Source: an uncultured Chloroflexia bacterium
Lineage (GTDB): Bacteria; Chloroflexota; Dehalococcoidia; DSTF01; JALHUB01
Direction: 5' to 3'
DNA: 64,000 nt
Assembly (NCBI GenBank): GCA_963703345.1
Contig: OY969814.1
Span: 1,630,967-1,694,966, forward strand
Shown here: piece after piece, positions 9,333 to 44,771 of the stretch
Layout of the letters: each line of letters starts with the position of its first letter
How positions within the stretch are numbered: position 1 is the first letter of the stretch
Program-made: the position numbers and the translations under genes
The notes under the pieces: generated by a model
What the model saw: only the letters and a program-made list of their open reading frames with translations
Told to the model about the DNA's origin: nothing
Database searches by the model: none

Positions 9333-9587
9333 GTGTTTCTTGCGAAGGTTTACGTGACGTTGAAGCCGACGGTCAACGACCCGCAGGGGCTGACGATCCG
9401 GGGTGGATTGCACTCGCTGGGGTTCAACAGCGTGGAGGCGGTGCGAGCCGGGAAGTACCTGGAGATACGCGTCGCGGGGTCGGACCGGGGGCAGGCGGAG
9501 TCGCAGGTGCACGAGATGTGCCGTCAGCTCCTAGCGAACCCGATCATCGAGGACTACCGCTTCGAGATCGAGGAGGCGGCGGGCTAG
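9333..9587 (+). CDS. purS: Phosphoribosylformylglycinamidine synthase subunit PurS
   Basis: VFLAKVYVTLKPTVNDPQG...LANPIIEDY; about 84 aa; GGAGGAG RBS upstream of the GTG. Confidence 0.8.
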   Translation: MFLAKVYVTLKPTVNDPQGLTIRGGLHSLGFNSVEAVRAGKYLEIRVAGSDRGQAESQVHEMCRQLLANPIIEDYRFEIEEAAG

Positions 9588-9857
9588 AGCGTGCCTTTTG
9601 TGGCGGGAATTTCCCCTGCTTGAATCGGGCGGCCGAACACAGTCCTGAGGGTTGAAACGGTAATTGTATACTTGACACAAGGCTGCTCACCTGCTATTCT
9701 TGTCTTGTGATGATGATGCAGATTCGGTTTCAGGCTTCTCGGGGTGAGCGAGCTTCTTCAAATGCTTCGCGGCTTTCTTCGGAAAGACGCGTTTCGCAAG
9801 TTCTTCGCTCGTCATCTCGTGGGCCTTCTTCTTACGCTTGGGCATAGGAGAACTCCA

Positions 9858-20613: not shown

Positions 20614-20642
20614 GACGGGCCCGAGCCGAAGGAGGTCGGTTG

Positions 20643-21260
20643 ATGGAGCCGCTCAAGTGTGTTGAGTGTGGCGCATTGTTCGAATTGTCGGAGGATAGAC
20701 GGCGGAGGTATCCAAAGTGGAAACCGAAGGTATGCCTAGCCTGCTACACGCGCGCCAGGCAGCGCCCTGAACTCAACCTTTCGACCGACGAGGTACTTCA
20801 GAGGTTCACCAAGGGCCCGAACACAGGTCTCTTCACAGATGGCAGTTGTGAGCACAATCCGAATGGACCAGGTGGATGGGGAGCGGTGAGAGTCCGGAAC
20901 GGCGTCGTTATGGTTCAGAAGTGCGGGCATTCGCCCGAGACCACGAGCAATCGCATGGAACTCACGGCACTCATTGAAGCGTACAAGATGCTGGCACCCG
21001 ATGAGGAAGCAGTAGTCTACACAGACAACAGGTACGGTCAAAACATCGCCTCGGCGTGGGCACGGACGTGGAAGAGAAACGGATGGACCCGAGGAAAGAA
21101 GCACGAGCCGGTAGAGAACCTAGACCTAGTGCAGGAATTGTACGCATTGGTTGAGGCTCACCCGCTGGTTCGCGTGGAATGGCAAAGGGGACACGACGGC
21201 TGTCGGTGGAATGAGTACGCTGACTCCCTATCGACAGCGTACACCCGCGATAGTGTCTAG
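20643..21260 (+). CDS. RNase H (type 1) domain protein with an N-terminal CxxC...CxxC zinc ribbon, in a low-GC (~54%) islet
   Basis: CVECG...CLAC; LFTDGSC (Asp1), ELTALIEAY (Glu), VYTDNRY (Asp), WQRGHDGCRWNEYADSLS (Asp). Local GC is about 14 points below the flanks. Confidence 0.65.
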   Translation: MEPLKCVECGALFELSEDRRRRYPKWKPKVCLACYTRARQRPELNLSTDEVLQRFTKGPNTGLFTDGSCEHNPNGPGGWGAVRVRNGVVMVQKCGHSPETTSNRMELTALIEAYKMLAPDEEAVVYTDNRYGQNIASAWARTWKRNGWTRGKKHEPVENLDLVQELYALVEAHPLVRVEWQRGHDGCRWNEYADSLSTAYTRDSV

Positions 21261-22039: not shown

Positions 22040-23574
22040 TTCGGCACCGGGTACAGCTCTTGGAGGAGCTCGCGGGCGACGCTTCGGTCGTCCCAGGGGA
22101 CATGCATGTCGCCGATGACCATCGATTGCTCGGTGCCCTTGCCAGCGAGGAGCACGACGTCGCCGGGGCGCGCGAGCTCGAAGGCGCGGCGGATGGCGGC
22201 GCGGCGGTTCGGAACGCGCAGGAAGTCGTCGCTTTCCCGACGGCCGGCGGCGATGAGGGCGCGGGCGATCTCGGCGATGATGGCGTCGGGGTCCTCGGAG
22301 CGCGGGTCTTCGTTCGTGAGGATGACGAAATCGGCGAGCTCGGCGGCGGCGCGGCCCATCCCTTGGCGGCGATTGTGGTCGCGCTCACCGGCGCAACCGA
22401 AGACGGCGATGAGGCGGCCTTTCGTCGTCGAACGGAGGACCTGGAGGACGCGACGCAGGGCCTCCGGCGTGGAAGCGATATCGACGACGACGGGGAACGG
22501 CTGGCCGCAGTCGACCGTCTCCATGCGGCCGGGCACACCCTTGAAGGCGGCAAGCGCGGCGCATGTTGTCTCCGGCGCTACCCCAAGCGAGAGGGCGACG
22601 GCGACGGCGGCAAGGGCATCGTACAGGTTGTGCCGTCCGGGAAGCGGCAGGCGGACGGGCAGGCGGCCAAACGCCCCGACGAGGTCGAAGACGGAGGCGA
22701 GCGGCTCCAGTCGAAGCGATTCGGCGCGGATGTCGGCCGGCGCGTCGATGGCGTAGGTGACGGCGTTGGCGCGCGTACGGGAGCGCAGAACGTCGGAGGC
22801 GGGATCGTCGGCGTTGAGGACGGCCGTCTTGGGCACGCCCTTGTCGACGCTCTCGTCCAGCATCCCAAACAGGCGGCCCTTCGCGGCGAGGTAGGCGGAC
22901 GAGTCGCCATGGAAGTCGAGGTGGTCGCTGCTGAGGGTCGTGAAGACCGCAACGTCGAACTCGCACTCGTCGACGCGGTTGAGCGCGAGGCCGTGCGAGG
23001 AAGCCTCGATGACGGCGTAGCGGCGGCCCCCCGCGACCATACGGGCGAGCATCTCCTGCACTTCGGGCGCCTGGAGCGTCGTCATGTGGGTGGCGTTGAG
23101 CTCCGGGCTGGTCGCTGTCTGGAAGGCAACGCTGCTGAGGTAGCCGGCAGGCAGGCAGGCCGCCTCCAGGAGCGCGGCGATGAGATGGACGGTGGTTGTC
23201 TTGCCGTCGGTGCCGGTGACGCCGATTGTGACGAGCCTTCGGGCCGGGAATCCCCAGAAGGCGGCGGCAATTCGCGCCAGCGAGCGGCGGCTGTCGGGGA
23301 CGACGACGAAGGCCGCGCTACCACCGTTTGCCAGCGCCTGCCACTTCGCCTGCCGGTCGGCCTGGACGACGATTGCGGCGGCGCCCTTTTCAAGCGCCAT
23401 GGCGACGAAGTCGTGGCCGTCGCGGCTTTGCGGCGGCAGGGCGCCGGGCACGGCGACGAAGACCGAGCCCGAGGTGACGAGTCGGGAGTCGTAGCAAACG
23501 GCCGGGACGGACGCAGGCGGTTGCCCGTCGAAGCGGGCGTAGGGCAGGAGCAAAGGCCAGTCGATGCGGGTCAT
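22036..23574 (-). CDS. murE: UDP-N-acetylmuramoyl-L-alanyl-D-glutamate--2,6-diaminopimelate ligase
   Basis: GVTGTDGKTTT P-loop, DNADD, Mur ligase C-terminal domain. ATG at 23574 has a GAGGTG RBS; the ORF is open to 23787. Confidence 0.8.
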   Translation of the reverse strand: MTRIDWPLLLPYARFDGQPPASVPAVCYDSRLVTSGSVFVAVPGALPPQSRDGHDFVAMALEKGAAAIVVQADRQAKWQALANGGSAAFVVVPDSRRSLARIAAAFWGFPARRLVTIGVTGTDGKTTTVHLIAALLEAACLPAGYLSSVAFQTATSPELNATHMTTLQAPEVQEMLARMVAGGRRYAVIEASSHGLALNRVDECEFDVAVFTTLSSDHLDFHGDSSAYLAAKGRLFGMLDESVDKGVPKTAVLNADDPASDVLRSRTRANAVTYAIDAPADIRAESLRLEPLASVFDLVGAFGRLPVRLPLPGRHNLYDALAAVAVALSLGVAPETTCAALAAFKGVPGRMETVDCGQPFPVVVDIASTPEALRRVLQVLRSTTKGRLIAVFGCAGERDHNRRQGMGRAAAELADFVILTNEDPRSEDPDAIIAEIARALIAAGRRESDDFLRVPNRRAAIRRAFELARPGDVVLLAGKGTEQSMVIGDMHVPWDDRSVARELLQELYPVPK

Positions 23575-23671
23575 ATCACCTCGCGAGTCGATTTCCGTCA
23601 TTATAGCGCCGGAGCCGAGCGTCGGCGAGAAAAGGGAGGCCCGTCCGCCTGAGGCGGACGGGCCACGCAAG

Positions 23672-24079
23672 CGCCAGCGGACCTGTAAGCCGAGTTCTGT
23701 CTTTCCGCCCAAGGCGGACAGGCCGCCTTCGACGAAACGGTGACCATCTATCTGGGATGACGGTTGCCCGCCACCTCTAGCGACCAACCCGAGGACGGGC
23801 CGGGCGAGCCCATAGTCCTCCTATTCGGTCTTGCTCCGGGTGGGGCTTGCCCGGCCAGCCGGTCGCCCGACTGCCGGTGAGCTCTTACCTCGCCATTTCA
23901 CCCTTATCCACCTGAGGCAGACAGGCCGCCTGCGGCGGACGGTATGTTTCTGTGGCGCTTTCCGTAGGGTCGCCCCTCCTGGGTGTTACCCAGCACCCTC
24001 GCCCGGTGGAGCTCGGACTTTCCTCCCTCATGCGTCTGCATCGCAGACGCGCGAGAGCGGTCACCCGGTCTGCTGGCGA
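23672..24079 (-). ncRNA. rnpB: RNase P RNA (bacterial type A)
   Basis: Reverse-strand reading gives GGGAGGAAAGUCCGAGCUCC (P4 5' strand), GGGUAACACCCAGG, ACAGAAACAUACCGCC, UAAGGGUGAAAUGGCGAGGUAAGAGCUCACC, and 3' ACAGAACUCGGCUUACAGG with a P1 pairing cgccagc/gctggcg. About 408 nt. A GC hairpin follows the 3' end. Confidence 0.85.
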
Positions 24080-24137
24080 GTCAAGTATAGCAGGAACGGG
24101 AGGACTTTAGAAGGCCGCCGTACTTCTGCCGGCGCGC

Positions 24138-24369
24138 CGAGGGCGTGTCTGAGGCGTCACTATAGGCAGCCCGGAGCGCGTTAGCACAAGCGCCTCGAGC
24201 GCGTGTCTGAGGCGTCACTATAGGCAGCCCGGAGCGCGTTAGCACAAGCGCCTCGAGCGCGTGTCTGAGGCGTCACTATAGGCAGCCCGGAGCGCGTTAG
24301 CACAAGCGCCTCGAGCGCGTGTCTGAGGCGTCACTATAGGCAGCCCGGAGCGCGTTAGCACAAGCGCCT
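24138..24369 (+). repeat. Four perfect tandem copies of a 58-bp unit (cgagcgcgtgtctgaggcgtcactataggcagcccggagcgcgttagcacaagcgcct), with no spacers
   Basis: Exact 58-bp periodicity read directly. Related solo copies lie at 44140 and 61438. Confidence 0.9.
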
Positions 24370-24411
24370 CGACGGCCTGGATCGTTCGTTGGATAGACAG
24401 GCGCCAATTCG

Positions 24412-24831
24412 TTATGTCGAGCTGTCGAGGGCCTGGTTGGCGAGGTTGTCGGCGAGGCGATTGCCGGTGCGCGGGACGTTTCGAAAGGTGGCGGACTGGA
24501 AACGGCTGCGCAGGTCAAGGAGGCGCTTGTAGAGAGGGATCAGTCGCGGGTTTCGAACGCGGTAACGGCCGGTGAGCTGCCGGACGACGAGCTCGGAGTC
24601 CATGCGCAGCTCGACATGAGCGGCACCGAGGCCCAATGCGGCTTCCAGAGCGCTGATGGCGGCACGGTACTCCGCCTCGTTGTTGGTGCCGACGCCGGTT
24701 CGTCGCGACTGCCGGTGGACTTCGCGGCCGGCGGGATCGAAGATGACGACGCCGACAGCCGAAGGACCCGGGTTGCCCCGCGAGGCGCCGTCGGCATAGG
24801 CGACGTAGACCGACCGCTGCGCCTCGCTCAC
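24412..24831 (-). CDS. rnhA: Ribonuclease HI-like protein
   Basis: YADGASRGNPGPSAVGVV...NNEAEYRA...RMDSELVVRQ...NRLADNLANQA; all four RNase H catalytic D/E/D/D positions present. Confidence 0.8.
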   Translation of the reverse strand: MSEAQRSVYVAYADGASRGNPGPSAVGVVIFDPAGREVHRQSRRTGVGTNNEAEYRAAISALEAALGLGAAHVELRMDSELVVRQLTGRYRVRNPRLIPLYKRLLDLRSRFQSATFRNVPRTGNRLADNLANQALDSST

Positions 24832-26240
24832 GGCCGCAGCGACACCTCGATGCCATCGTCGACGACGATAATACGGTTGACGACGTCACGCAGGAGAGAG
24901 CGCCGCGAGGGGAAATCGAGCGAGTCCCAGCGGTCGCAGAGACGAAGCAACGCCTGCTCCTGCGCCCGCCGTCGCGCGGCCACCGACGCCTGTTCCTCGA
25001 CGCGCCGCTCCGCCGCGACTAATCGCCCCTCCATCTCAAGCCGCTCGGTGGCAAGCGCCATGCCGAGTGATTGCAGCTTCTCGCGGCTAAGGCGGCCGCG
25101 GGCGGCGGCGTCCATGTGCCGCTCCAGTCGCTTGTCCAGTTGGGCCAGGCGGCGTCGCATCTCTTCTCGCTCTTCCTTCGATTCGGCGAAGACGGCGTCC
25201 TGATCACCGGCCTGGCGGAAGGCGCTTCCGCCATCTAGGTCGAGTGCGGAAAGCTGCCCGCGCACCTCGCTTTCGAGGTCGTCGGCGCGACGGGTGTGAT
25301 AATCGCAGAGGCTCTGGTTTGTGCGCGACTGGCACTGATAATAGCGATAGGAGGCTTCGGCGACGGAACCGTCCCGCTGCCGCTTCCAACTCTGTCGGCG
25401 GCTTACGCCAATCATTTTGTTGTTGCAGTAGCCGCAGTAGACGAGTCCGGAGAGCAGGAAGGGCGCGGCCTGCGGCGCGGAGTAGCTGCTGCGGCGCGCC
25501 ATCAGGCAGTCCTGCACGCGGCGGAAGTCCTCATTTGAGATGAGAGCGGGATGGCTGCCCGGCACGCGGACGCCGAAGCGGCTGTAGGTGCCAAGGTAGG
25601 TGCGGTTGCGAAGGATGTCGCGGATGCTCACCATGCTCCAGTTGCCGCCGCGTCGGGTCTTGACGCCCTCCTGGTTCAGGCAGCGGGCGATGCGTCGGAT
25701 GCCGAGCCCCTCCTGCAAGTAGAGTCGAAAGATGTAGCGGACGACGACGGCTTCCTCCGGGACCAGGTCCAGGCGGCGGCGATTGCCGACCCGATAGCCG
25801 AAAGGCGGCCGGCCGAGCACTTCGCCTCTGACGGCTTTGCGTCGCATGGCGGAGCGTACTTTGTCGCCGACGCGGCCCTGGTTGCTCTTGGTCCAGGCTT
25901 CGAGGAGGCGACCGGTTGCGTCGTCGTCGTTCATGACGAGCACCTGGGCGCCGAGGCCCTGCAGCTCGAACCAGCTCCGGGCGGCCTCCTTGACGTCGCG
26001 GCCGAGGCAATCGATTGACGGCGTGACGACCATCAGGAAGCCTTTCTCCGGCCGCTTGAGGAACTCGACGAGTTGCTGGTAGCCGGGACGCCTTTCGGCA
26101 TCGACTGCGGCACCGTCGACGAAGGAGGCGACCGCCTCGTAGCCGCGATCACGGCAGAACTCAAGGAAGGCCGTGCTCTGCGCCGCGAGCGGTTCGCCGC
26201 GATCCCCCGCGGGCTCTTTGAAGTAGCCTACCGCCTTCAT
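24828..26240 (-). CDS. Large serine-recombinase homologue (resolvase-like N-domain, recombinase domain, Cys4 zinc ribbon, coiled coil) that apparently lacks the catalytic Ser/Arg residues
   Basis: Recombinase domain (LGRPPFGYR...VRYIFRLY), zinc ribbon (CGYCNNKM...YYQCQS...C). N-terminal AVGYFKEPAGD in place of the A-x-Y-x-R-x-S-T/S-x-x-Q catalytic motif; IDCLGRD in place of DRLGR. Start and stop overlap the flanking genes. Confidence 0.65.
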   Translation of the reverse strand: MKAVGYFKEPAGDRGEPLAAQSTAFLEFCRDRGYEAVASFVDGAAVDAERRPGYQQLVEFLKRPEKGFLMVVTPSIDCLGRDVKEAARSWFELQGLGAQVLVMNDDDATGRLLEAWTKSNQGRVGDKVRSAMRRKAVRGEVLGRPPFGYRVGNRRRLDLVPEEAVVVRYIFRLYLQEGLGIRRIARCLNQEGVKTRRGGNWSMVSIRDILRNRTYLGTYSRFGVRVPGSHPALISNEDFRRVQDCLMARRSSYSAPQAAPFLLSGLVYCGYCNNKMIGVSRRQSWKRQRDGSVAEASYRYYQCQSRTNQSLCDYHTRRADDLESEVRGQLSALDLDGGSAFRQAGDQDAVFAESKEEREEMRRRLAQLDKRLERHMDAAARGRLSREKLQSLGMALATERLEMEGRLVAAERRVEEQASVAARRRAQEQALLRLCDRWDSLDFPSRRSLLRDVVNRIIVVDDGIEVSLRP

Positions 26241-34913: not shown

Positions 34914-36941
34914 ATGTGGCATCCTAAGAGCGTCAGAATCATCGTCATCCCGGTAGCGGCGTTGGCCGTCGGCCTCGCCCTGTGCGCGGCGATCTTAGTC
35001 ATCGCCCTGGGAGTGCGCCCAGCGGCGGCAGGGCCGAACGCCAGCCCGGGCGCGCCCAACCCGGGCCACGCCTGGGCCGAAATCGAAGGCCACGGGACAG
35101 ACTCAGCAGGCTGGTGGCTGGGCACCAGCGCCAGCACGGCCCTGGAGCTGCGCGTGAACGGTGTCCGCGCCCTGCGCCTGGAGCCCAACGCCACCAGCCC
35201 CAACGTCATCGGCGGCTACAGCGGCAACAGCGTGACGGCGGGTGCGGTGGGAGCCGCCATCGGCGGCGGCGGGGCGAGCGGCAATAGTAACAGCGTGAGC
35301 GACGACTACGGCACGGTGGGAGGGGGCTACAAAAACCAGGCGGGCGACAACGCGGGCACCACCTCAGACCGCACCTACGCCACCGTCGACGGGGGCGCCC
35401 TCAACATCGCCGACGGCACCACCTCTACCGTGGGCGGGGGCGCCTCGAATCACGCCAGCGGCGGCGGCTCGGCCGTCGGCGGGGGCTGGAGCAACACGGC
35501 CAGCGGCGTGTTCGCCACCGTGCCGGGGGGCGTCAGCAACACCGCCAGCGCCGACTACGCCACAATTGCGGGAGGCGGCAGAAGCGACCCCAACAACGCC
35601 AGCACGGGCAACCGCGTGACCGACAACTACGGCACGGTGGGAGGAGGCGGAAACAACCAGGCAGGCGACGGGGGCGACACCACAAGCAGCACCTACGCCA
35701 CCGTCGGCGGGGGCCAGAGCAACACCGCCAGCGGCACCCTCGCCACCGTCGGCGGGGGCCAATCCAACAACGCCAGCTCGTACGCCACCGTCGGCGGGGG
35801 CCAAAACAACAACGCCAGCGGCGGCGGCGCCACCGTCGGCGGGGGCTACGGCAGCATCGCCAGCGGCGGCTACGCCACCGTCGGCGGGGGCAGCAGCAAC
35901 ACGGCCAGCAGCAACTACGCCACCGTCGGCGGGGGCCAGAGCAACACTGCCAGCGCCGACTACGCCACCGTCAGCGGGGGCGACGGCAACCAGGCCAGCG
36001 CCGAGGGCGCCACCGTCGCCGGAGGCGGCTACGACCCCCTCTTCGGGGAGGGGGGCAGCAACTTGGCCAGCAATTTGGATGCCACCGTCGGCGGGGGCGC
36101 ACACAACATCGCCAACAGCGACTCCGCCACCGTCGGCGGGGGCAATTACAACACGGCCTCAGGGCCAGCCGCCACCGTGCCGGGGGGCTGGTGGGACGTC
36201 GCGTCGGGAATGTACAGCTTCGCTGCCGGCAACCGGGCCAAGGCCAACAACCAGGGGTGCTTCGTGTGGGCCGACTCTACCTACGCCGACTACACTTGCA
36301 GCACCAACGACCGGTTCCAGGTCCGCGCCAACGGCGGCGCGCGCTTTGACGTGAACAACGGCAGCTTCGTGCAGATCTTCAATGACGGGGTCAACCTTAT
36401 CAACACCTCGGCGGGCGGCGCGCGTCTGACGATGGCCGGCGTTTGGACCAACGCCTCGGATGCCGCCCTGAAGGAGAACTTCAGTCTCGTGGACGGCAAG
36501 GAGGTACTCGCCGACGTCGTCGCCATGCCCGTCAGCACCTGGAGCTACCGCGTCGAGGGCAGCGACACCGTGCACATGGGCCCGACGGCGCAGGACTTCT
36601 ACAGCGCGTTCAAGCTGGGCGACAGTGACAAGTCCATCGGCACCGTGGACGCCGAGGGCGTGGCGCTCGCATCCATCCAGGGGCTCTACCAGCTCTCCCA
36701 AGAGCAGGCCACCCGCATCCAGACCCTGGAGGACGAGAACGCTTCCCTCAAGCAAGGGCTTGACAGCCTGGACGCGCGGGTGACGGCGCTGGAAGGGGCA
36801 AACGGGACGAGCAACAGCAGCAACGGCGGATCGGCTGGACCGTTCTCCTCCGGCCTGAGCATCGGCTGGCTGCCTATCGGCGGACTGCTGGTGGCGGGCC
36901 TGGTCCTGGTGCAGCGCCGCCGCGCGGGAGGCAAGCGATGA
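34914..36941 (+). CDS. Cell-surface fibre protein: N-terminal signal anchor, ~25 Gly-rich 12-13-aa repeats (ATVGGGxSNTAS), a phage tail-fibre-type C-terminal intramolecular-chaperone (peptidase S74) domain, a coiled coil, and a C-terminal TM plus RRR tail
   Basis: SDAALKENFSLVDG...VSTWSYR...HMGPTAQDFYSAFKLG...LASIQGLYQL matches the S74 auto-cleaving chaperone signature (SDxxLKxNI...). C-terminus is LPIGGLLVAGLVLVQRRRAGGKR. Confidence 0.7.
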   Translation: MWHPKSVRIIVIPVAALAVGLALCAAILVIALGVRPAAAGPNASPGAPNPGHAWAEIEGHGTDSAGWWLGTSASTALELRVNGVRALRLEPNATSPNVIGGYSGNSVTAGAVGAAIGGGGASGNSNSVSDDYGTVGGGYKNQAGDNAGTTSDRTYATVDGGALNIADGTTSTVGGGASNHASGGGSAVGGGWSNTASGVFATVPGGVSNTASADYATIAGGGRSDPNNASTGNRVTDNYGTVGGGGNNQAGDGGDTTSSTYATVGGGQSNTASGTLATVGGGQSNNASSYATVGGGQNNNASGGGATVGGGYGSIASGGYATVGGGSSNTASSNYATVGGGQSNTASADYATVSGGDGNQASAEGATVAGGGYDPLFGEGGSNLASNLDATVGGGAHNIANSDSATVGGGNYNTASGPAATVPGGWWDVASGMYSFAAGNRAKANNQGCFVWADSTYADYTCSTNDRFQVRANGGARFDVNNGSFVQIFNDGVNLINTSAGGARLTMAGVWTNASDAALKENFSLVDGKEVLADVVAMPVSTWSYRVEGSDTVHMGPTAQDFYSAFKLGDSDKSIGTVDAEGVALASIQGLYQLSQEQATRIQTLEDENASLKQGLDSLDARVTALEGANGTSNSSNGGSAGPFSSGLSIGWLPIGGLLVAGLVLVQRRRAGGKR

Positions 36942-38287: not shown

Positions 38288-38529
38288 GCCTGCGGGCGGC
38301 CGGACGGGGTCGGATGACGGCATGACATTCCTCGTCGAAGGCGCATGATCGCCTAACATTTCACCGTAGCATGCCGCAGAAGGATCGTCAAACGAGGGGA
38401 TTCGCGGCGTCGAGAGGCGGCACGGGTCGTCGAGTACGGGACATTGCTTGCACGAACCAGGGCCTTGACATTCGTCGCGCGAAGAGTATGCTTGGGATGC
38501 TGGTGGTCGATAGTGGTCTATGGAGGTGC

Positions 38530-40326
38530 ATGATGCTCTCCTCACGCCTGCTCCGTCTTTTCCCGCTTCTGTTCGTCTGTTCGCTCGTGGTGATGTCGTC
38601 GGGTTCCAGCAGAAAGGCCCTGGCCGGGGTCATCGGCCAAATGTTTGGCGGCACCTCGCCGGCATCTGCAGCAAACGCCTCGGCCGTGTCCGCGGGGTGG
38701 AACTACACCTGCGCTCTAACGACAGCGGGCGGACTCCAGTGCTGGGGGAACAACTGGTACGGCCAGCTGGGGGACGGCACTACCACCGATCGCCACACCC
38801 CCGTCGACGTCTCAGGGCTCACCAGCGGCGTGGCCACCGTGGCCGCGGGCAATTTCCACGCCTGTGCCCTCACCACCGCGGGCGGCGTCGAGTGCTGGGG
38901 GTGGAACTACTACGGTGAGTTGGGGGACGGCACCACCACCTCGAGCACCACCCCCGTCGACGTGTCCGGTCTCAGCAGCGGCGTGGCTGCCGTGGCGGCA
39001 GGCGCCGAGCACACCTGCGCCCTGACAATACAGGGCGGCGTCAAATGCTGGGGGTACAACGCCGACGGCGAGTTGGGGGACGGCACCACCACCTCGAGCA
39101 CCACCCCCGTCGATGTCTCCGGCCTCACCAGCGGCGTGGCCGCCGTGGCCGCAGGCGCCATTCGGACCTGCGCCCTGACAACGGCGGGCAGCGTAAAGTG
39201 CTGGGGATCCGGTTACGGGCTCAACCCAGTCGACGTCTGCGGCGCCATCAGTGGCATGGCCGCCGTGGCCGCAGGCGACTATCACACCTGCGCCCTCACC
39301 AGCGGTGGCGGCCTCAAGTGCTGGGAGAACAATACCTACGGCCAATTGGGGGACGGCACCACTACCTGGCGCACCTCCCCCGTCGACGTCTCCGGCCTCA
39401 CCAGCGGCGTCGCTGCCGTGGCACCAGGCTCCATTCACACCTGCGCCCTGACCACGGGGGGCGGCGTCCAGTGCTGGGGGTGGAACCACGACGGTCAGTT
39501 GGGAGATGGCACCACCACCTCACGCCACACCCCGGTCAACGTCTCCGGCCTGACCGGCGGCGTGGCCGCCGTGGCCGCGGGCACCAATCACACTTGCGCC
39601 CTGACCACGGGTGGCGCCCTCAAGTGCTGGGGGGACAACAGCTACGGCGAGTTGGGGGATGGCACCACCGCCTCGCGGCACATCCCCGTGGACGTGCTGT
39701 TCAGCGGCGAACCGACGCCCACCGCCACGCTCACCTCCACCCCCGGTGGGCCCACCCCCACGTACACTGCCACTCCCGCGGCCACTGTCACTCCCACGTA
39801 CACGCCGACAGCAACGTCCACACCCCTGGTGGGTCCTCAGATCGACAAGACTGTCAACGGCCGGCAGTGTCTCGTCGTCGCCTCGGGTGACTCGGTCATC
39901 TACCATTGGGTCGTCACCAATGCTGGTGGCGAAGCATTCACCGCCGACGTCAATGATGACACTCACGCCGCCCTTGACAACCACTGCTCATCGGTCGCGC
40001 CGGGCGACACATGCGAGCAGTCGGCGCAGGTGGCCCTTCTGACCCCGGGACTCGTCACGGACATCGCCTCAGTGGAGGCGTGCAGCACTGGATCCGGCTG
40101 CAGTTCCGCCTCGGACTCTGTCACGGTCAACGTTCTGGCCCCTACGCCGACGCGCGATCCAGTGGCCGTTGGCGGGATTGGGGAGCCGCCGGATGACATG
40201 AAGACGACGCATGGAGGCGGCGGGCCTCCGGTGGGCGCAATCGCGATGCTTGCGGGCGTCGCTGTCGTCGTCGCGATGGCCGGCGGATGGTACGCGCAGC
40301 GGCGGGTCGGGCGTCAGCGGCGGTAG
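38530..40326 (+). CDS. Secreted RCC1-repeat beta-propeller protein (7-8 repeats) plus a DUF11-like beta-sandwich domain, a Thr/Pro linker, and a C-terminal [11 protein letters not shown] - linker - TM - [15 protein letters not shown] tail
   Basis: Repeats of the form [45 protein letters not shown]. Signal peptide [21 protein letters not shown]. Confidence 0.7.
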
Positions 40327-42421: not shown

Positions 42422-43402
42422 TCAACGGCCGGTGTGCGTCTCTAGTGCGATCTGGCTCAGGTGCTGAAGCACATGATCTACCCACCTTTGGTACCAACAC
42501 CACTGGCCACAGACCGGCACGCCAAACCCCTTGGCCGGGTTCTTTGCATCGGTGTTCTTCCACAACTGAGTGTGCTGGTAGATACCGAAACTCGCAAATC
42601 CCTCTTCACGGGCGATTCTGATGACATCCTTCGCGCGGAACTTCGGTTTCTCGGTGTCTTTCAGCACCCAGCGCTCCTTCGGAACGTCCCCTGCTTCTTC
42701 AGAATCGGGGGAGATGAACTCGAATACGCTGTCGGCCTGACCTCGCTTGCCAACCGCTTTGTCAGTGAAGAAGAAGCGGCGAGAATAGCGTTTGCTGTTC
42801 ATTTCATCGTCACTCAGGCCATCATCAAATCGAGAGACGTATGATCGAATAGAGTTTGGAATGGTGTCGTCGCCGGATACCATACTTGCGACTTGCTGCC
42901 GGCTCAACTCAGCGAACTGAATGCTATAGGTTAGATGTCGGTCGAGCCCATAGCGGGGACCGAACAGCTTCTTTAGATAGTGATCGTAGTTGAGAGCGCA
43001 CGCCTGATATCTCCCTGAGAGGTGGGTGTCTAGCTGGGGAGGCTTGACGTGCTCGATTTCGTGTCTCAATCCTAGCAGGAATTGGAGGTTGTTCCTCGTG
43101 TCTCGGTCCAGAGGACACTGTTCAACCTTGAGACACTTGGCCAGATCCCAGTACCGATGCCGGCCGTCAACTCGCTCGAACATGCGCCTTTTCGCGCCCG
43201 GTTTGTAGTAGCGGTACTCCACTTTTGCCCCTCTGTAGTGCGCGTGCAGCAAATATGTCCAAGCCATGACCATCAATACAATAAAGGTCTCACTCTTGAA
43301 GGTGATGAGGGGGTTGTTGTAAGTCTGAATGGCGGCAAGAGCCGCTTCTCTTGAGCTTCGGATCAGCGCGACCTTGTGAGAGAACAACTTCCTTGCTGCC
43401 AT
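42422..43402 (-). CDS. DUF3644-like protein of unknown function in a low-GC (~52%) islet between uvrB and ruvA
   Basis: AALAAIQTYNNP...FKSETFIVLMVMAWTYLLHA resembles the DUF3644 N-terminal signature. Its GC is about 15 points below the neighbours. The ORF is open to 43462. Confidence 0.5.
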   Translation of the reverse strand: MAARKLFSHKVALIRSSREAALAAIQTYNNPLITFKSETFIVLMVMAWTYLLHAHYRGAKVEYRYYKPGAKRRMFERVDGRHRYWDLAKCLKVEQCPLDRDTRNNLQFLLGLRHEIEHVKPPQLDTHLSGRYQACALNYDHYLKKLFGPRYGLDRHLTYSIQFAELSRQQVASMVSGDDTIPNSIRSYVSRFDDGLSDDEMNSKRYSRRFFFTDKAVGKRGQADSVFEFISPDSEEAGDVPKERWVLKDTEKPKFRAKDVIRIAREEGFASFGIYQHTQLWKNTDAKNPAKGFGVPVCGQWCWYQRWVDHVLQHLSQIALETHTGR

Positions 43403-43513
43403 GCCTACCTCCCGACCGGATTTGCCTCCACCAGCTAGAGCACTGGCGGGGTATTCCGGCAAAGAGATAATACAGGCCTAATTCGTGAGCGGCAATTGCC
43501 CTCGCTGAGCGTG

Positions 43514-44110
43514 CTAGGACGTGAAGGAGGATAGGGCGAGACGGATCTTGTCTTCCAGCGAGAGCGAGCCGTCGGACGGTAAGCGACCCGCGGCGGCGGC
43601 GGCTTCGGCCTGGGTGTAGCCCAGCGATACTAGCGCCGCGATCACTTCGTCGTCGGCACTGAGGAGGGAGGCGGCGGGAACGCCCATGGACAGGTGCTCG
43701 GGCAACCGCCCCTTGAGGTCGATGATGATGCGGCTGGCGGTCTTGGCGCCGATGCCCGGCACACCACGGATGCGCTCGACATCGCCGTTGGCGATGGCCT
43801 CCCAGATGGAGTCGCCGGGAAGGCCGGTCAGCAGGGCAAGGCCGGCCTTGGGCCCGACGCCGGAGACGCCGATGAGCAGGTGGAAGAGTCGCATCTCGTC
43901 GGCGGTGGCGAATCCGTAGAGGGCGATGTCGCTCTCGCGCGCCTGAAGATGGGTGTAGAGCGACACTTCGCGGCCCGGGACGCCCAGGGCGTCGCGGGTG
44001 TGGCCCGGCACCTGGACGAGCACCCCAAGACCGGTGCCGTCGACTCGGATGGTTATGCCCTCGGGACCGGCGTCTTCGACGACGCCCCAGATGCGAGTGA
44101 CGGCGCTCAT
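43514..44110 (-). CDS. ruvA: Holliday junction branch migration complex subunit RuvA
   Basis: OB-fold N-terminus, two HhH motifs (LIGVSGVGPKAGLALL / GVPGIGAKTASRII), C-terminal domain III. Confidence 0.8.
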   Translation of the reverse strand: MSAVTRIWGVVEDAGPEGITIRVDGTGLGVLVQVPGHTRDALGVPGREVSLYTHLQARESDIALYGFATADEMRLFHLLIGVSGVGPKAGLALLTGLPGDSIWEAIANGDVERIRGVPGIGAKTASRIIIDLKGRLPEHLSMGVPAASLLSADDEVIAALVSLGYTQAEAAAAAGRLPSDGSLSLEDKIRLALSSFTS

Positions 44111-44139
44111 GGCGCGACGCTCCTCTCGATCAGCGCCTG

Positions 44140-44205
44140 CGAGCGCGTGTCTGAGGCGCCGCTACAAGCAGCCCGGAGCGCGTTAGCGAAAGCGTATCTT
44201 GAGCG
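44140..44205 (+). repeat. Solo copy of the 24138-family repeat (gagcgcgtgtctgaggcgccgctacaagcagcccggagcgcgttagcgaaagcg...gagcgc), in the ruvC-ruvA spacer
   Basis: About 80% identity to the tandem unit over about 60 bp; read directly. Confidence 0.7.
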
Positions 44206-44234
44206 CAAATCGCGCAGCTTGAGTTCGGCAACGC

Positions 44235-44771
44235 TCATGGCATTGCGCTCCTTTCCAGGAGGGACCGCGAGCGCGTGTGGTTGACGTGGCAGATGGCGAC
44301 CGCGAGGGCGTCGGCGGCGTCGAACGGCTGCGGCAGGTCGCGGAGGCCGAGCTGCAGACGCACCATCTCCTGCACCTGCCCCTTCGGGCCGCGTCCGTAG
44401 CCGGTCACTGAGCGCTTCACTTCGGCGGGCGAGTACTGCTCGACGGGTAGCCCGGCGAGCCCCGCGGCAAGGACGGCCAGCGCCCGCGCTTCGCCTATCG
44501 CCAGCGCGGAGTGGGCGTTTACGGCAACGAACGGCTGCTCGACGGCGACCTCCGTCGGCGCGTGACGGGCGATGACATCTTGCAGCGAGGCGAAGAGAGC
44601 GGCGAGTCGCTCCGGCAGAGGGAGCCGCGGATTGACCGCGAAACAGCCGTAGTCGACGGCCTGCAGCGACTCGCCGCAGCAGGCGACGAGTCCGAAGCCC
44701 ATCATCCTCAGTCCCGGGTCGATGCCGAGAACGAGGCTGCTTTCGGACCGGTCGGCGTCGCTGTGAGACAT
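44235..44771 (-). CDS. ruvC: Crossover junction endodeoxyribonuclease RuvC
   Basis: LGIDPG...E...AD...H catalytic tetrad layout. The true start is probably about 12 codons inside the ORF (near LVLGIDPG). Confidence 0.8.
   Translation of the reverse strand: MSHSDADRSESSLVLGIDPGLRMMGFGLVACCGESLQAVDYGCFAVNPRLPLPERLAALFASLQDVIARHAPTEVAVEQPFVAVNAHSALAIGEARALAVLAAGLAGLPVEQYSPAEVKRSVTGYGRGPKGQVQEMVRLQLGLRDLPQPFDAADALAVAICHVNHTRSRSLLERSAMP

Follow-up and report, generated by a model that had tools for sequence, protein, structure and literature searches.

A short, uncatalogued family of intergenic repeats in uncultured Chloroflexota that resembles MIRU and REP elements

A 58-bp unit found in the gene spacers of uncultured Chloroflexota probably represents an uncatalogued family of short, non-coding, non-autonomous, MIRU/REP-like interspersed repeats that are selfish or nearly neutral. 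It was studied in a 64-kb stretch of DNA (hereafter the window; the source genome has a G+C content of 65%) and in related genomes, where it behaves like the selfish "junk" repeats of other bacteria and not like an RNA gene or a promoter. Although the feature is genuine and apparently undescribed, its kind is a familiar one, and it does not represent a new type of biological system. REPs, MIRUs, Correia elements and other short interspersed repeats affect operon expression and genome plasticity and serve as strain-typing markers; to our knowledge, almost none have been described in Chloroflexota. The present family offers a clean series of sites that are filled in some genomes and empty in others, an array of variable copy number next to the universal marker gene rnpB, and a case in which insertion into a 4-nt gene overlap is accommodated by a 47-nt junction duplication and a bridging open reading frame (ORF). 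It is useful material for studying how non-palindromic repeats of the MIRU-like sort spread when no transposase is known for them.

Three sites in the window carry the element. Tandem Repeats Finder detects an array at 24138-24372 with a period of 58, 4.1 copies, 99% matches and a score of 463, which by this program and by pattern and HMM matches consists of four head-to-tail 58-bp units on the + strand (24138-24195, 24196-24253, 24254-24311 and 24312-24369, each a 46-nt core with a 12-nt tail) and 3 nt of a fifth. The array lies between the stop codon of rnhA (24412-24831, - strand; Pfam), at 24412, and the inferred promoter of rnpB (23670-24076, - strand; Rfam RF00010, 284.6 bits). An earlier note on this DNA had described four identical copies; the four 58-bp units are present, the description being a slight overstatement because unit 1 carries GAGGGCG instead of GAGCGCG, a single substitution relative to the identical units 2-4. 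The two solo copies that it had placed at 44140 and 61438 were located at 44140 and 61437. The first (44140-44206, + strand; core 44140-44185, tail 44186-44200, a third GAGCGC box 44201-44206) occupies the spacer between ruvC (44235-44771, - strand) and ruvA (43514-44110, - strand). The second (61437-61501, + strand; core 61437-61482, tail 61483-61494, third box CGAGCGC 61495-61501) lies between the stop codon of mazG (60594-61403, + strand) and the promoter of archease (61581-62006, + strand), these four genes being assigned by Pfam. Over 44140-44199 and 61437-61496 the solo copies are 85% and 83% identical to the array unit, respectively. All six flanking genes are those named earlier, and every copy in the window is indeed intergenic and in the same absolute orientation, with the core HMM finding no copies in the 64 kb beyond the array and the two solos.

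An alignment of 19 distinct units drawn from the window and related loci defines the anatomy of the element. Each unit is 58-60 bp long and consists of a 46-nt core (CGAGCGCGTGTCTGAGRCG...GGAGCGCGTK) and a variable tail of 12-15 nt, which is poorly conserved and evolves fast. The core, CGAGCGCGTGTCTGAGRCGYNGCTAYNRGCAGCCYGGAGCGCGTK, contains two direct GAGCGCGT boxes 35 nt apart, bearing out the internal direct repeat GAGCGCGT...GAGCGCGT that had been seen in common in the array and the solo copies. All 19 units begin with CGAG or CGGG and end with GCGT(K). Box 2 (GGAGCGCGT) is invariant in 16 of the 19, and the interior between the boxes varies. The conservation of box 1 is partly forced, since the search patterns demanded it, whereas box 2 was absent from the metagenome search pattern, so its conservation was not imposed there. 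A third GAGCGC box is found at about +59 in three of the six solo copies. At locus L004, box 2 opens a second, truncated core, and the underlying module is therefore about 35 nt long. On the sense strand, none of the unit's three reading frames is free of stop codons.

The 18-mer GAGCGCGTGTCTGAGGCG of box 1, with up to three mismatches allowed, occurs six times in the window against 0.45 occurrences expected, and none of 100 shuffles reaches six. The core HMM recognises 28 units at nine independent insertion sites in the window and the related loci, with E-values from 1e-16 to 5e-4, and finds no units among chance pattern matches. All nine sites are intergenic, with copies located solely in gene spacers; at least six of them lie between co-directional genes and one between divergent genes, a count in which the upstream neighbour alone is known for L007 and L011. 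Perfect tandem arrays can be mis-assembled, and GC-rich spacers of a genome with this base composition might look alike by chance, but we consider such an artefact hardly credible. Besides the excess of the pattern count over the shuffles and the lowest HMM E-values, it is refuted by an independent short-read contig, L008, which is orthologous to window positions 22067-25076 (85% identity) and has four non-identical 58-bp units in the same place.

Related copies were found at six further loci in related metagenome contigs and metagenome-assembled genomes (MAGs). A scan of JGI metagenomes yielded six contigs with the element (L006-L011), including L008; L010, which is orthologous to the ruvC region and carries the orthologous copy; L009 with two units; and L011 with at least two units of 60 bp. 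A two-box pattern run over 185,579 species-representative genomes, a collection that leaves out the source genome of the window, gave one true match, in the uncultured Chloroflexota MAG L004 (OY970386.1). Homologues of RuvC, RNase H and archease, together with their contigs, supplied ~225 kb of related genomes for comparison. The related organisms are labelled 'Chloroflexia' or 'Dehalococcoidia' by their depositors, and five lineages (the window, L008, L014-18, L019/L004 and L021) are roughly equidistant at 82-87% nucleotide identity. An Rfam scan of the window returned RNase P RNA as the sole match at the gathering threshold, and no other match was obtained for window positions 24000-24500 at E-values up to 10. 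Plasmids and phages gave no match to the element. Viral contigs gave two chance matches to the 18-mer without the remainder of the core, and a viral origin was dropped. Nor is the element described in the literature searched. The characterisation as an undescribed dispersed family thus holds across these sources, and as far as the searches reach, the family is confined to a narrow clade of uncultured peat and soil Chloroflexota.

A comparison of orthologous spacers indicates behaviour like that of mobile or selfish DNA, mobility having been suspected in the earlier note: each of the four spacers that allow comparison with relatives is occupied in some lineages and vacant in others. The rnhA-rnpB spacer has four units in the window, four in L008, one in L014-18, one in L021, one degenerate unit in L019/L020 and none in the more distant L028 and L029, in which the rnpB promoter nearly abuts the rnhA stop codon. 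The tandem copy number thus differs between lineages (4, 4, 1, 1, 1, 0). The flank homology common to these loci indicates one old insertion, after which the number of units rose or fell locally. The L014-18 unit abuts the rnhA stop codon and has a mutated box 2, and the degenerate copy of L019/L020 indicates that the element sequence can decay. At ruvC/ruvA, the window and L010 have the element in a spacer of 124 nt, versus a 4-nt gene overlap in L012 and L013. Between NfeD and hisZ the element is present in L019 and missing from the window, L014 and L021. Between mazG and archease it is present in the window only and missing from L022, L023 and L024/25, the L022 spacer being a compact 68 nt. 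Other arrays, of two and at least two units, are found at two other loci. Different lineages have acquired copies at different spacers, with multiplication on the spot. Arrays may lengthen or shorten when the direct boxes undergo slippage or unequal exchange; the array beside rnpB would be an old insertion that was amplified locally, outside the rnpB gene and its core promoter.

Small repeats of another type, GTAG-type hairpins (GTAGGGGAGGAC...GTCCTCCC), occupy the NfeD/hisZ and mazG/archease spacers of relatives without the GAGCGCGT-box element (L014 ~10150-10230, L021 ~15600-15680, L023 ~9875-9920 and L024 ~2130-2240, the L024 repeat ending ...CCCGCCCTAC). Because relatives carry these unrelated inserts there, both spacers are general landing sites for small repeats.

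Insertion has left traces at the ruvC-ruvA site. A repeat search and an alignment with the empty sites of L012 and L013 reveal a 47-nt direct duplication flanking the inserted segment, the two halves being 77% identical. The left copy (44104-44150, + strand) comprises the junction of the ruvC end and ruvA start with CGAGCGCGTGT, and the right copy (44232-44278, + strand) lies in the 3′ coding end of ruvC, to which CGAGCGCGTGT is native. On the strand antisense to this copy of the element, translation gives a 43-codon ORF (44107-44238, - strand) that bridges the two genes, with its ATG overlapping the ruvC stop codon (ATGA) and its stop codon overlapping the ruvA ATG (ATGA). In L010, the bridging frame stays open through the element despite a 6-nt indel. 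We estimate from the G+C content that such an arrangement has a chance probability of roughly 0.1. The ORF may be translated, and since the sense unit has stops in all three frames, only the antisense orientation could keep translational coupling.

Further traces were found at other sites. The 7-mer GCCTCTC is present on both sides of the mazG copy, and in the empty rnhA-rnpB site of L029 a CGAGCGG adjoins the rnhA stop codon. A GAGCG-like sequence is already present at or near two targets, the ruvC 3′ end and the empty L029 site. Thin as this indication is, targets may often resemble the box, which would fit microhomology-guided copying. One single insertion mechanism is not established, because the target duplications differ greatly, 47 nt versus about 7 nt.

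The window has a second long junction duplication, at an IS1595-family insertion between purS and hisB, which abut in convergent orientation. Here the sequence surrounding both stop codons, ~28 bp in length (GCTAGAGCGTnCC..TTTGTG), flanks the 2.1-kb insert at 9583-9610 and 11693-11720, with the insertion sequence itself at 9645-11388 (DDE_Tnp_IS1595 transposase at 9744-10766, 38-nt terminal inverted repeats). The idea that the 58-bp unit derives from this element, the only insertion sequence in the window, was discarded, the terminal inverted repeats (CTGAGGGTTGAAACGG...) being unrelated to the unit ends. Close to the ruvC-ruvA site, a DUF3644 gene (42422-43462, - strand) between ruvA and uvrB has a third-position G+C of 0.65 compared with about 0.85 in its neighbours; it is probably a recent acquisition, because in L013 ruvA is directly followed by uvrB.

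Compared with the known classes of short repeats, the family is MIRU-like in four respects and occupies the niche of REPs, yet lacks defining features of both. MIRUs (Supply et al. 1997, as summarised in PMC3184786 and PMC12548453) are likewise non-coding units of 40-100 bp that form direct head-to-tail arrays in spacers between co-directional genes. Their copy number also varies by lineage (here in arrays of 4, 4, 2 and at least 2 units), and in both cases a comparison of filled and empty sites suggests insertion. A fourth, partial likeness is an ORF in the element that is coupled to both neighbours by ATGA (-4) overlaps, exactly as described for MIRUs (PMC12548453; PMC3184786); here it is found at ruvC/ruvA only, because sense-oriented units carry stops in all three frames. 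The likeness concerns behaviour as described in these papers. Unlike MIRUs, the element is hosted by Chloroflexota instead of Actinomycetota, and its orientation relative to the flanking genes is mixed (five sense, three antisense, one divergent) instead of uniform.

REP, BIME and REPIN elements are GTAG- and CGTC-tagged extragenic palindromes (PMC3733652, PMC6006769). The present element resembles them in being small, abundant, intergenic and lineage-specific, mostly downstream of ORFs between unidirectional genes; it shares spacers that GTAG-type repeats fill in relatives, and its replication-strand bias, described below, recalls single-strand mobilisation from the lagging-strand template. 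It differs in that no conserved GTAG, GTGG or CGTC is present at either end of the 19 aligned units, the palindrome is weak and no better than in shuffled sequence, and inverted doublets are absent, with the units always being head-to-tail. No RAYT, Y1 or HuH transposase was found among the 29 Pfam-scanned genes of the 53 predicted in the window. With MITEs the element has in common that it is short, non-autonomous and dispersed in spacers, with filled and empty sites and direct duplications at its flanks; in contrast to MITEs, the unit ends are not terminal inverted repeats, and the 47-nt and about 7-nt flank duplications are no fixed short target-site duplication. The suggestion of a REP- or MITE-like element can therefore not be maintained in the strict sense of either term. 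The exclusion of a CRISPR was right, since the units abut without spacers beside rnhA, rnpB and murE. A type III toxin-antitoxin (ToxI-like) arrangement was also rejected, there being no + strand ORF downstream of the array, rnhA lying on the - strand and the solo copies being dispersed.

The common orientation of the copies in the window tracks the replication strand. Across the window GC skew is positive, 24 of its 25 2.5-kb chunks agreeing in sign. At eight of the nine independent insertion sites, the strand on which the element reads in sense is the G-rich one (one-sided binomial p about 0.02), a bias resting on nine events with weak skew at two of the sites. As the orientation relative to the flanking genes is mixed, it is replication and not transcription that the orientation follows. 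The spread of the element may accordingly be tied to replication, given that the sense strand almost always coincides with the G-rich strand, the lagging-strand template. Box 1 contains GCGCGTG, the Lactococcus Chi sequence. Outside the elements, in 256 kb comprising the window and 11 related loci, the leading strand has 58 occurrences of GCGCGTG and the lagging strand 42, the corresponding numbers for GAGCGCGT being 26 and 29; since neither is a strand-skewed motif, a Chi-like role of box 1 was rejected. When these 256 kb are oriented by GC skew, the leading strand is very strongly enriched in several G-rich octamers (CGAGGGCG 73 versus 10 on the lagging strand, GGAGGCGA 55 versus 5 and TGCCGGTG 45 versus 4), which are candidate polar (KOPS/Chi-like) motifs of the clade. 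The first of them, CGAGGGCG, is the box 1 variant in the first array unit and in L019.

Scanning the units revealed neither a sigma-70 promoter nor an intrinsic terminator. A promoter read from the - strand of the unit (TTGTGC-19 nt-TATAGT) was dismissed on account of its wrong spacing, the lack of conservation of its hexamers in other copies and the negative scan, and a reading as an intrinsic terminator was discarded as well, no terminator-like site being found at the element. The inferred rnpB promoter (24084-24112, - strand; -35 TTCTAA at 24112-24107, a 17-nt spacer, -10 TATACT at 24089-24084) lies between the array and rnpB, outside the repeat. Its -10 hexamer TATACT is conserved in five orthologous loci; the scan detected the L021 promoter (TTGACA-16-TATACT), and the promoter of the window scores under the scan threshold. 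The archease promoter similarly lies downstream of the mazG-archease solo copy.

Five of the nine insertions are sense-oriented and located 24-73 nt downstream of a stop codon. They could be transcribed into an RNA that acts as a 3′-UTR or intercistronic hairpin stabilising the upstream mRNA, as a U-tract-free terminator of the kind proposed for REPs, or as a small processed RNA. A stem between box 1 and box 2 is possible on the + strand, with 96.5% of alignment cells being able to pair, and all one-sided changes (G-C to G-U, U-G to C-G or U-A) keep the pairing on this strand only. As RNA, the + strand also folds 5-6 kcal/mol better than the - strand. However, the stem needs three or four G.U/G.T pairs, RNAalifold finds 0 compensatory pairs with a covariation term of -0.09, and column shuffles match the observed pairing. 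The folding z-scores of the + strand RNA (-1.0, +0.4 and -1.3) are not significant against shuffles. L014 has two uncompensated stem-breaking substitutions, and three or four insertions are antisense to their flanking genes, the oldest one among them. Given in addition the absence of terminator-like sites and of Rfam matches, a role as RNA is improbable and a weaker rival than the protein binding considered below. The earlier suggestion of a small structured RNA family is not supported. As single-stranded DNA, the + strand has z-scores of +0.2 to +1.0 and neither strand folds better than shuffles, on which ground a REP-type hairpin was rejected; over RNA and DNA together the z-scores range from -1.3 to +1.1.

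Some observations sit uneasily with selfish DNA. The boxes are almost invariant while the interior is variable, and the rnhA-rnpB copy keeps its boxes across about 15% genome divergence, so that functional constraint instead of selfish persistence is possible. For the same two reasons, strongly conserved boxes and an rnhA-rnpB copy that five lineages have retained, protein binding stays the main rival. The direct GAGCGCGT boxes would then be a double-stranded binding site, or an array of sites, for a sequence-specific protein such as a nucleoid-associated protein, a regulator or a serine-recombinase-like protein encoded two genes upstream of the array, and the array would modulate the expression of rnpB or of the rnhA operon. 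The invariance of box 2 where the search pattern did not require it is consistent with this, as is the degenerate L019 unit, in which both boxes (GGGGGCGT and GAGGGCGT) carry an identical C-to-G substitution that breaks the pairing and leaves them alike. In five lineages the rnhA-rnpB copy lies 20-35 nt upstream of the rnpB -35 hexamer, and the neighbouring protein, of 470 aa, possesses the DNA-binding region of large serine recombinases in full and keeps its syntenic position in every relative. Against protein binding, the position relative to promoters is inconsistent (copies follow stop codons, sit within an operon or occupy a divergent spacer), close relatives differ by gains and losses of sites, and the box spacing of 35 nt is not a whole number of helical turns. 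Moreover, the rnpB site is empty in L028 and L029, even though L029 retains the recombinase-like gene. On balance we regard a binding site as unlikely.

The 470-aa protein itself (24828-26240, - strand) has Resolvase, Recombinase and Zn_ribbon_recom domains. Its gene lies between a CT398-like gene and rnhA, the start of which its end overlaps, and it is syntenic also in the repeat-free L029. The C-terminal 320 residues align with the DNA-binding region of the A118 serine integrase, and the N-terminus, MKAVGYFKEPAG, lacks the YxRVS motif of the catalytic serine and reads DCLGR in place of the expected DRLxR. Judged from these motifs, it looks like a domesticated, catalytically dead large serine recombinase in a housekeeping operon.

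We therefore return to the preferred reading, a selfish or nearly neutral repeat, and to how it might persist and spread. Such DNA would persist where expression is unharmed, namely after stop codons and upstream of the next promoter, and between translationally coupled genes it would persist in the orientation that leaves the bridging ORF open. Possible routes of entry are single-strand insertion or microhomology-guided template switching at GAGCG-like targets, the former facing the objection that the hairpin it requires does not exceed shuffled sequence in stability. The analysis identified no gene, transposase or other, that would mobilise the element, and the only insertion sequence of the window has unrelated ends. 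A bolder interpretation, which we hold to be doubtful, is an active mini-element oriented by the replication strand, which would enter the lagging-strand template or spread by template switching at GAGCG-like sites. Equally doubtful is the further proposal that it has its own 'adaptor', with three-frame stops one way and an open coupling frame the other way, and could thus colonise 4-nt overlaps with a long junction duplication. Were such a replication-oriented mini-element real, it would be the first MIRU-like system outside mycobacteria, with its spread reconstructable from filled and empty sites. In a more remote variant, the conserved and apparently catalytically dead large serine recombinase encoded beside the oldest copy might bind the 46-nt core as a pseudo-att site.

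Two further features of the window were recorded. The region around rnhA encodes two RNase H paralogues: besides rnhA itself (RVT_3/RNase_H) there is a second gene about 3 kb away (20640-21260, + strand; 206 aa, third-position G+C 0.66), which L019 and L029 have as well. Other strong tandem-repeat matches, at 35693-36186 and 38705-39695, lie inside two large repeat-rich proteins (34914-36941 and 38371-40326, + strand), one with a Peptidase_S74 chaperone domain and the other an RCC1-repeat beta-propeller.
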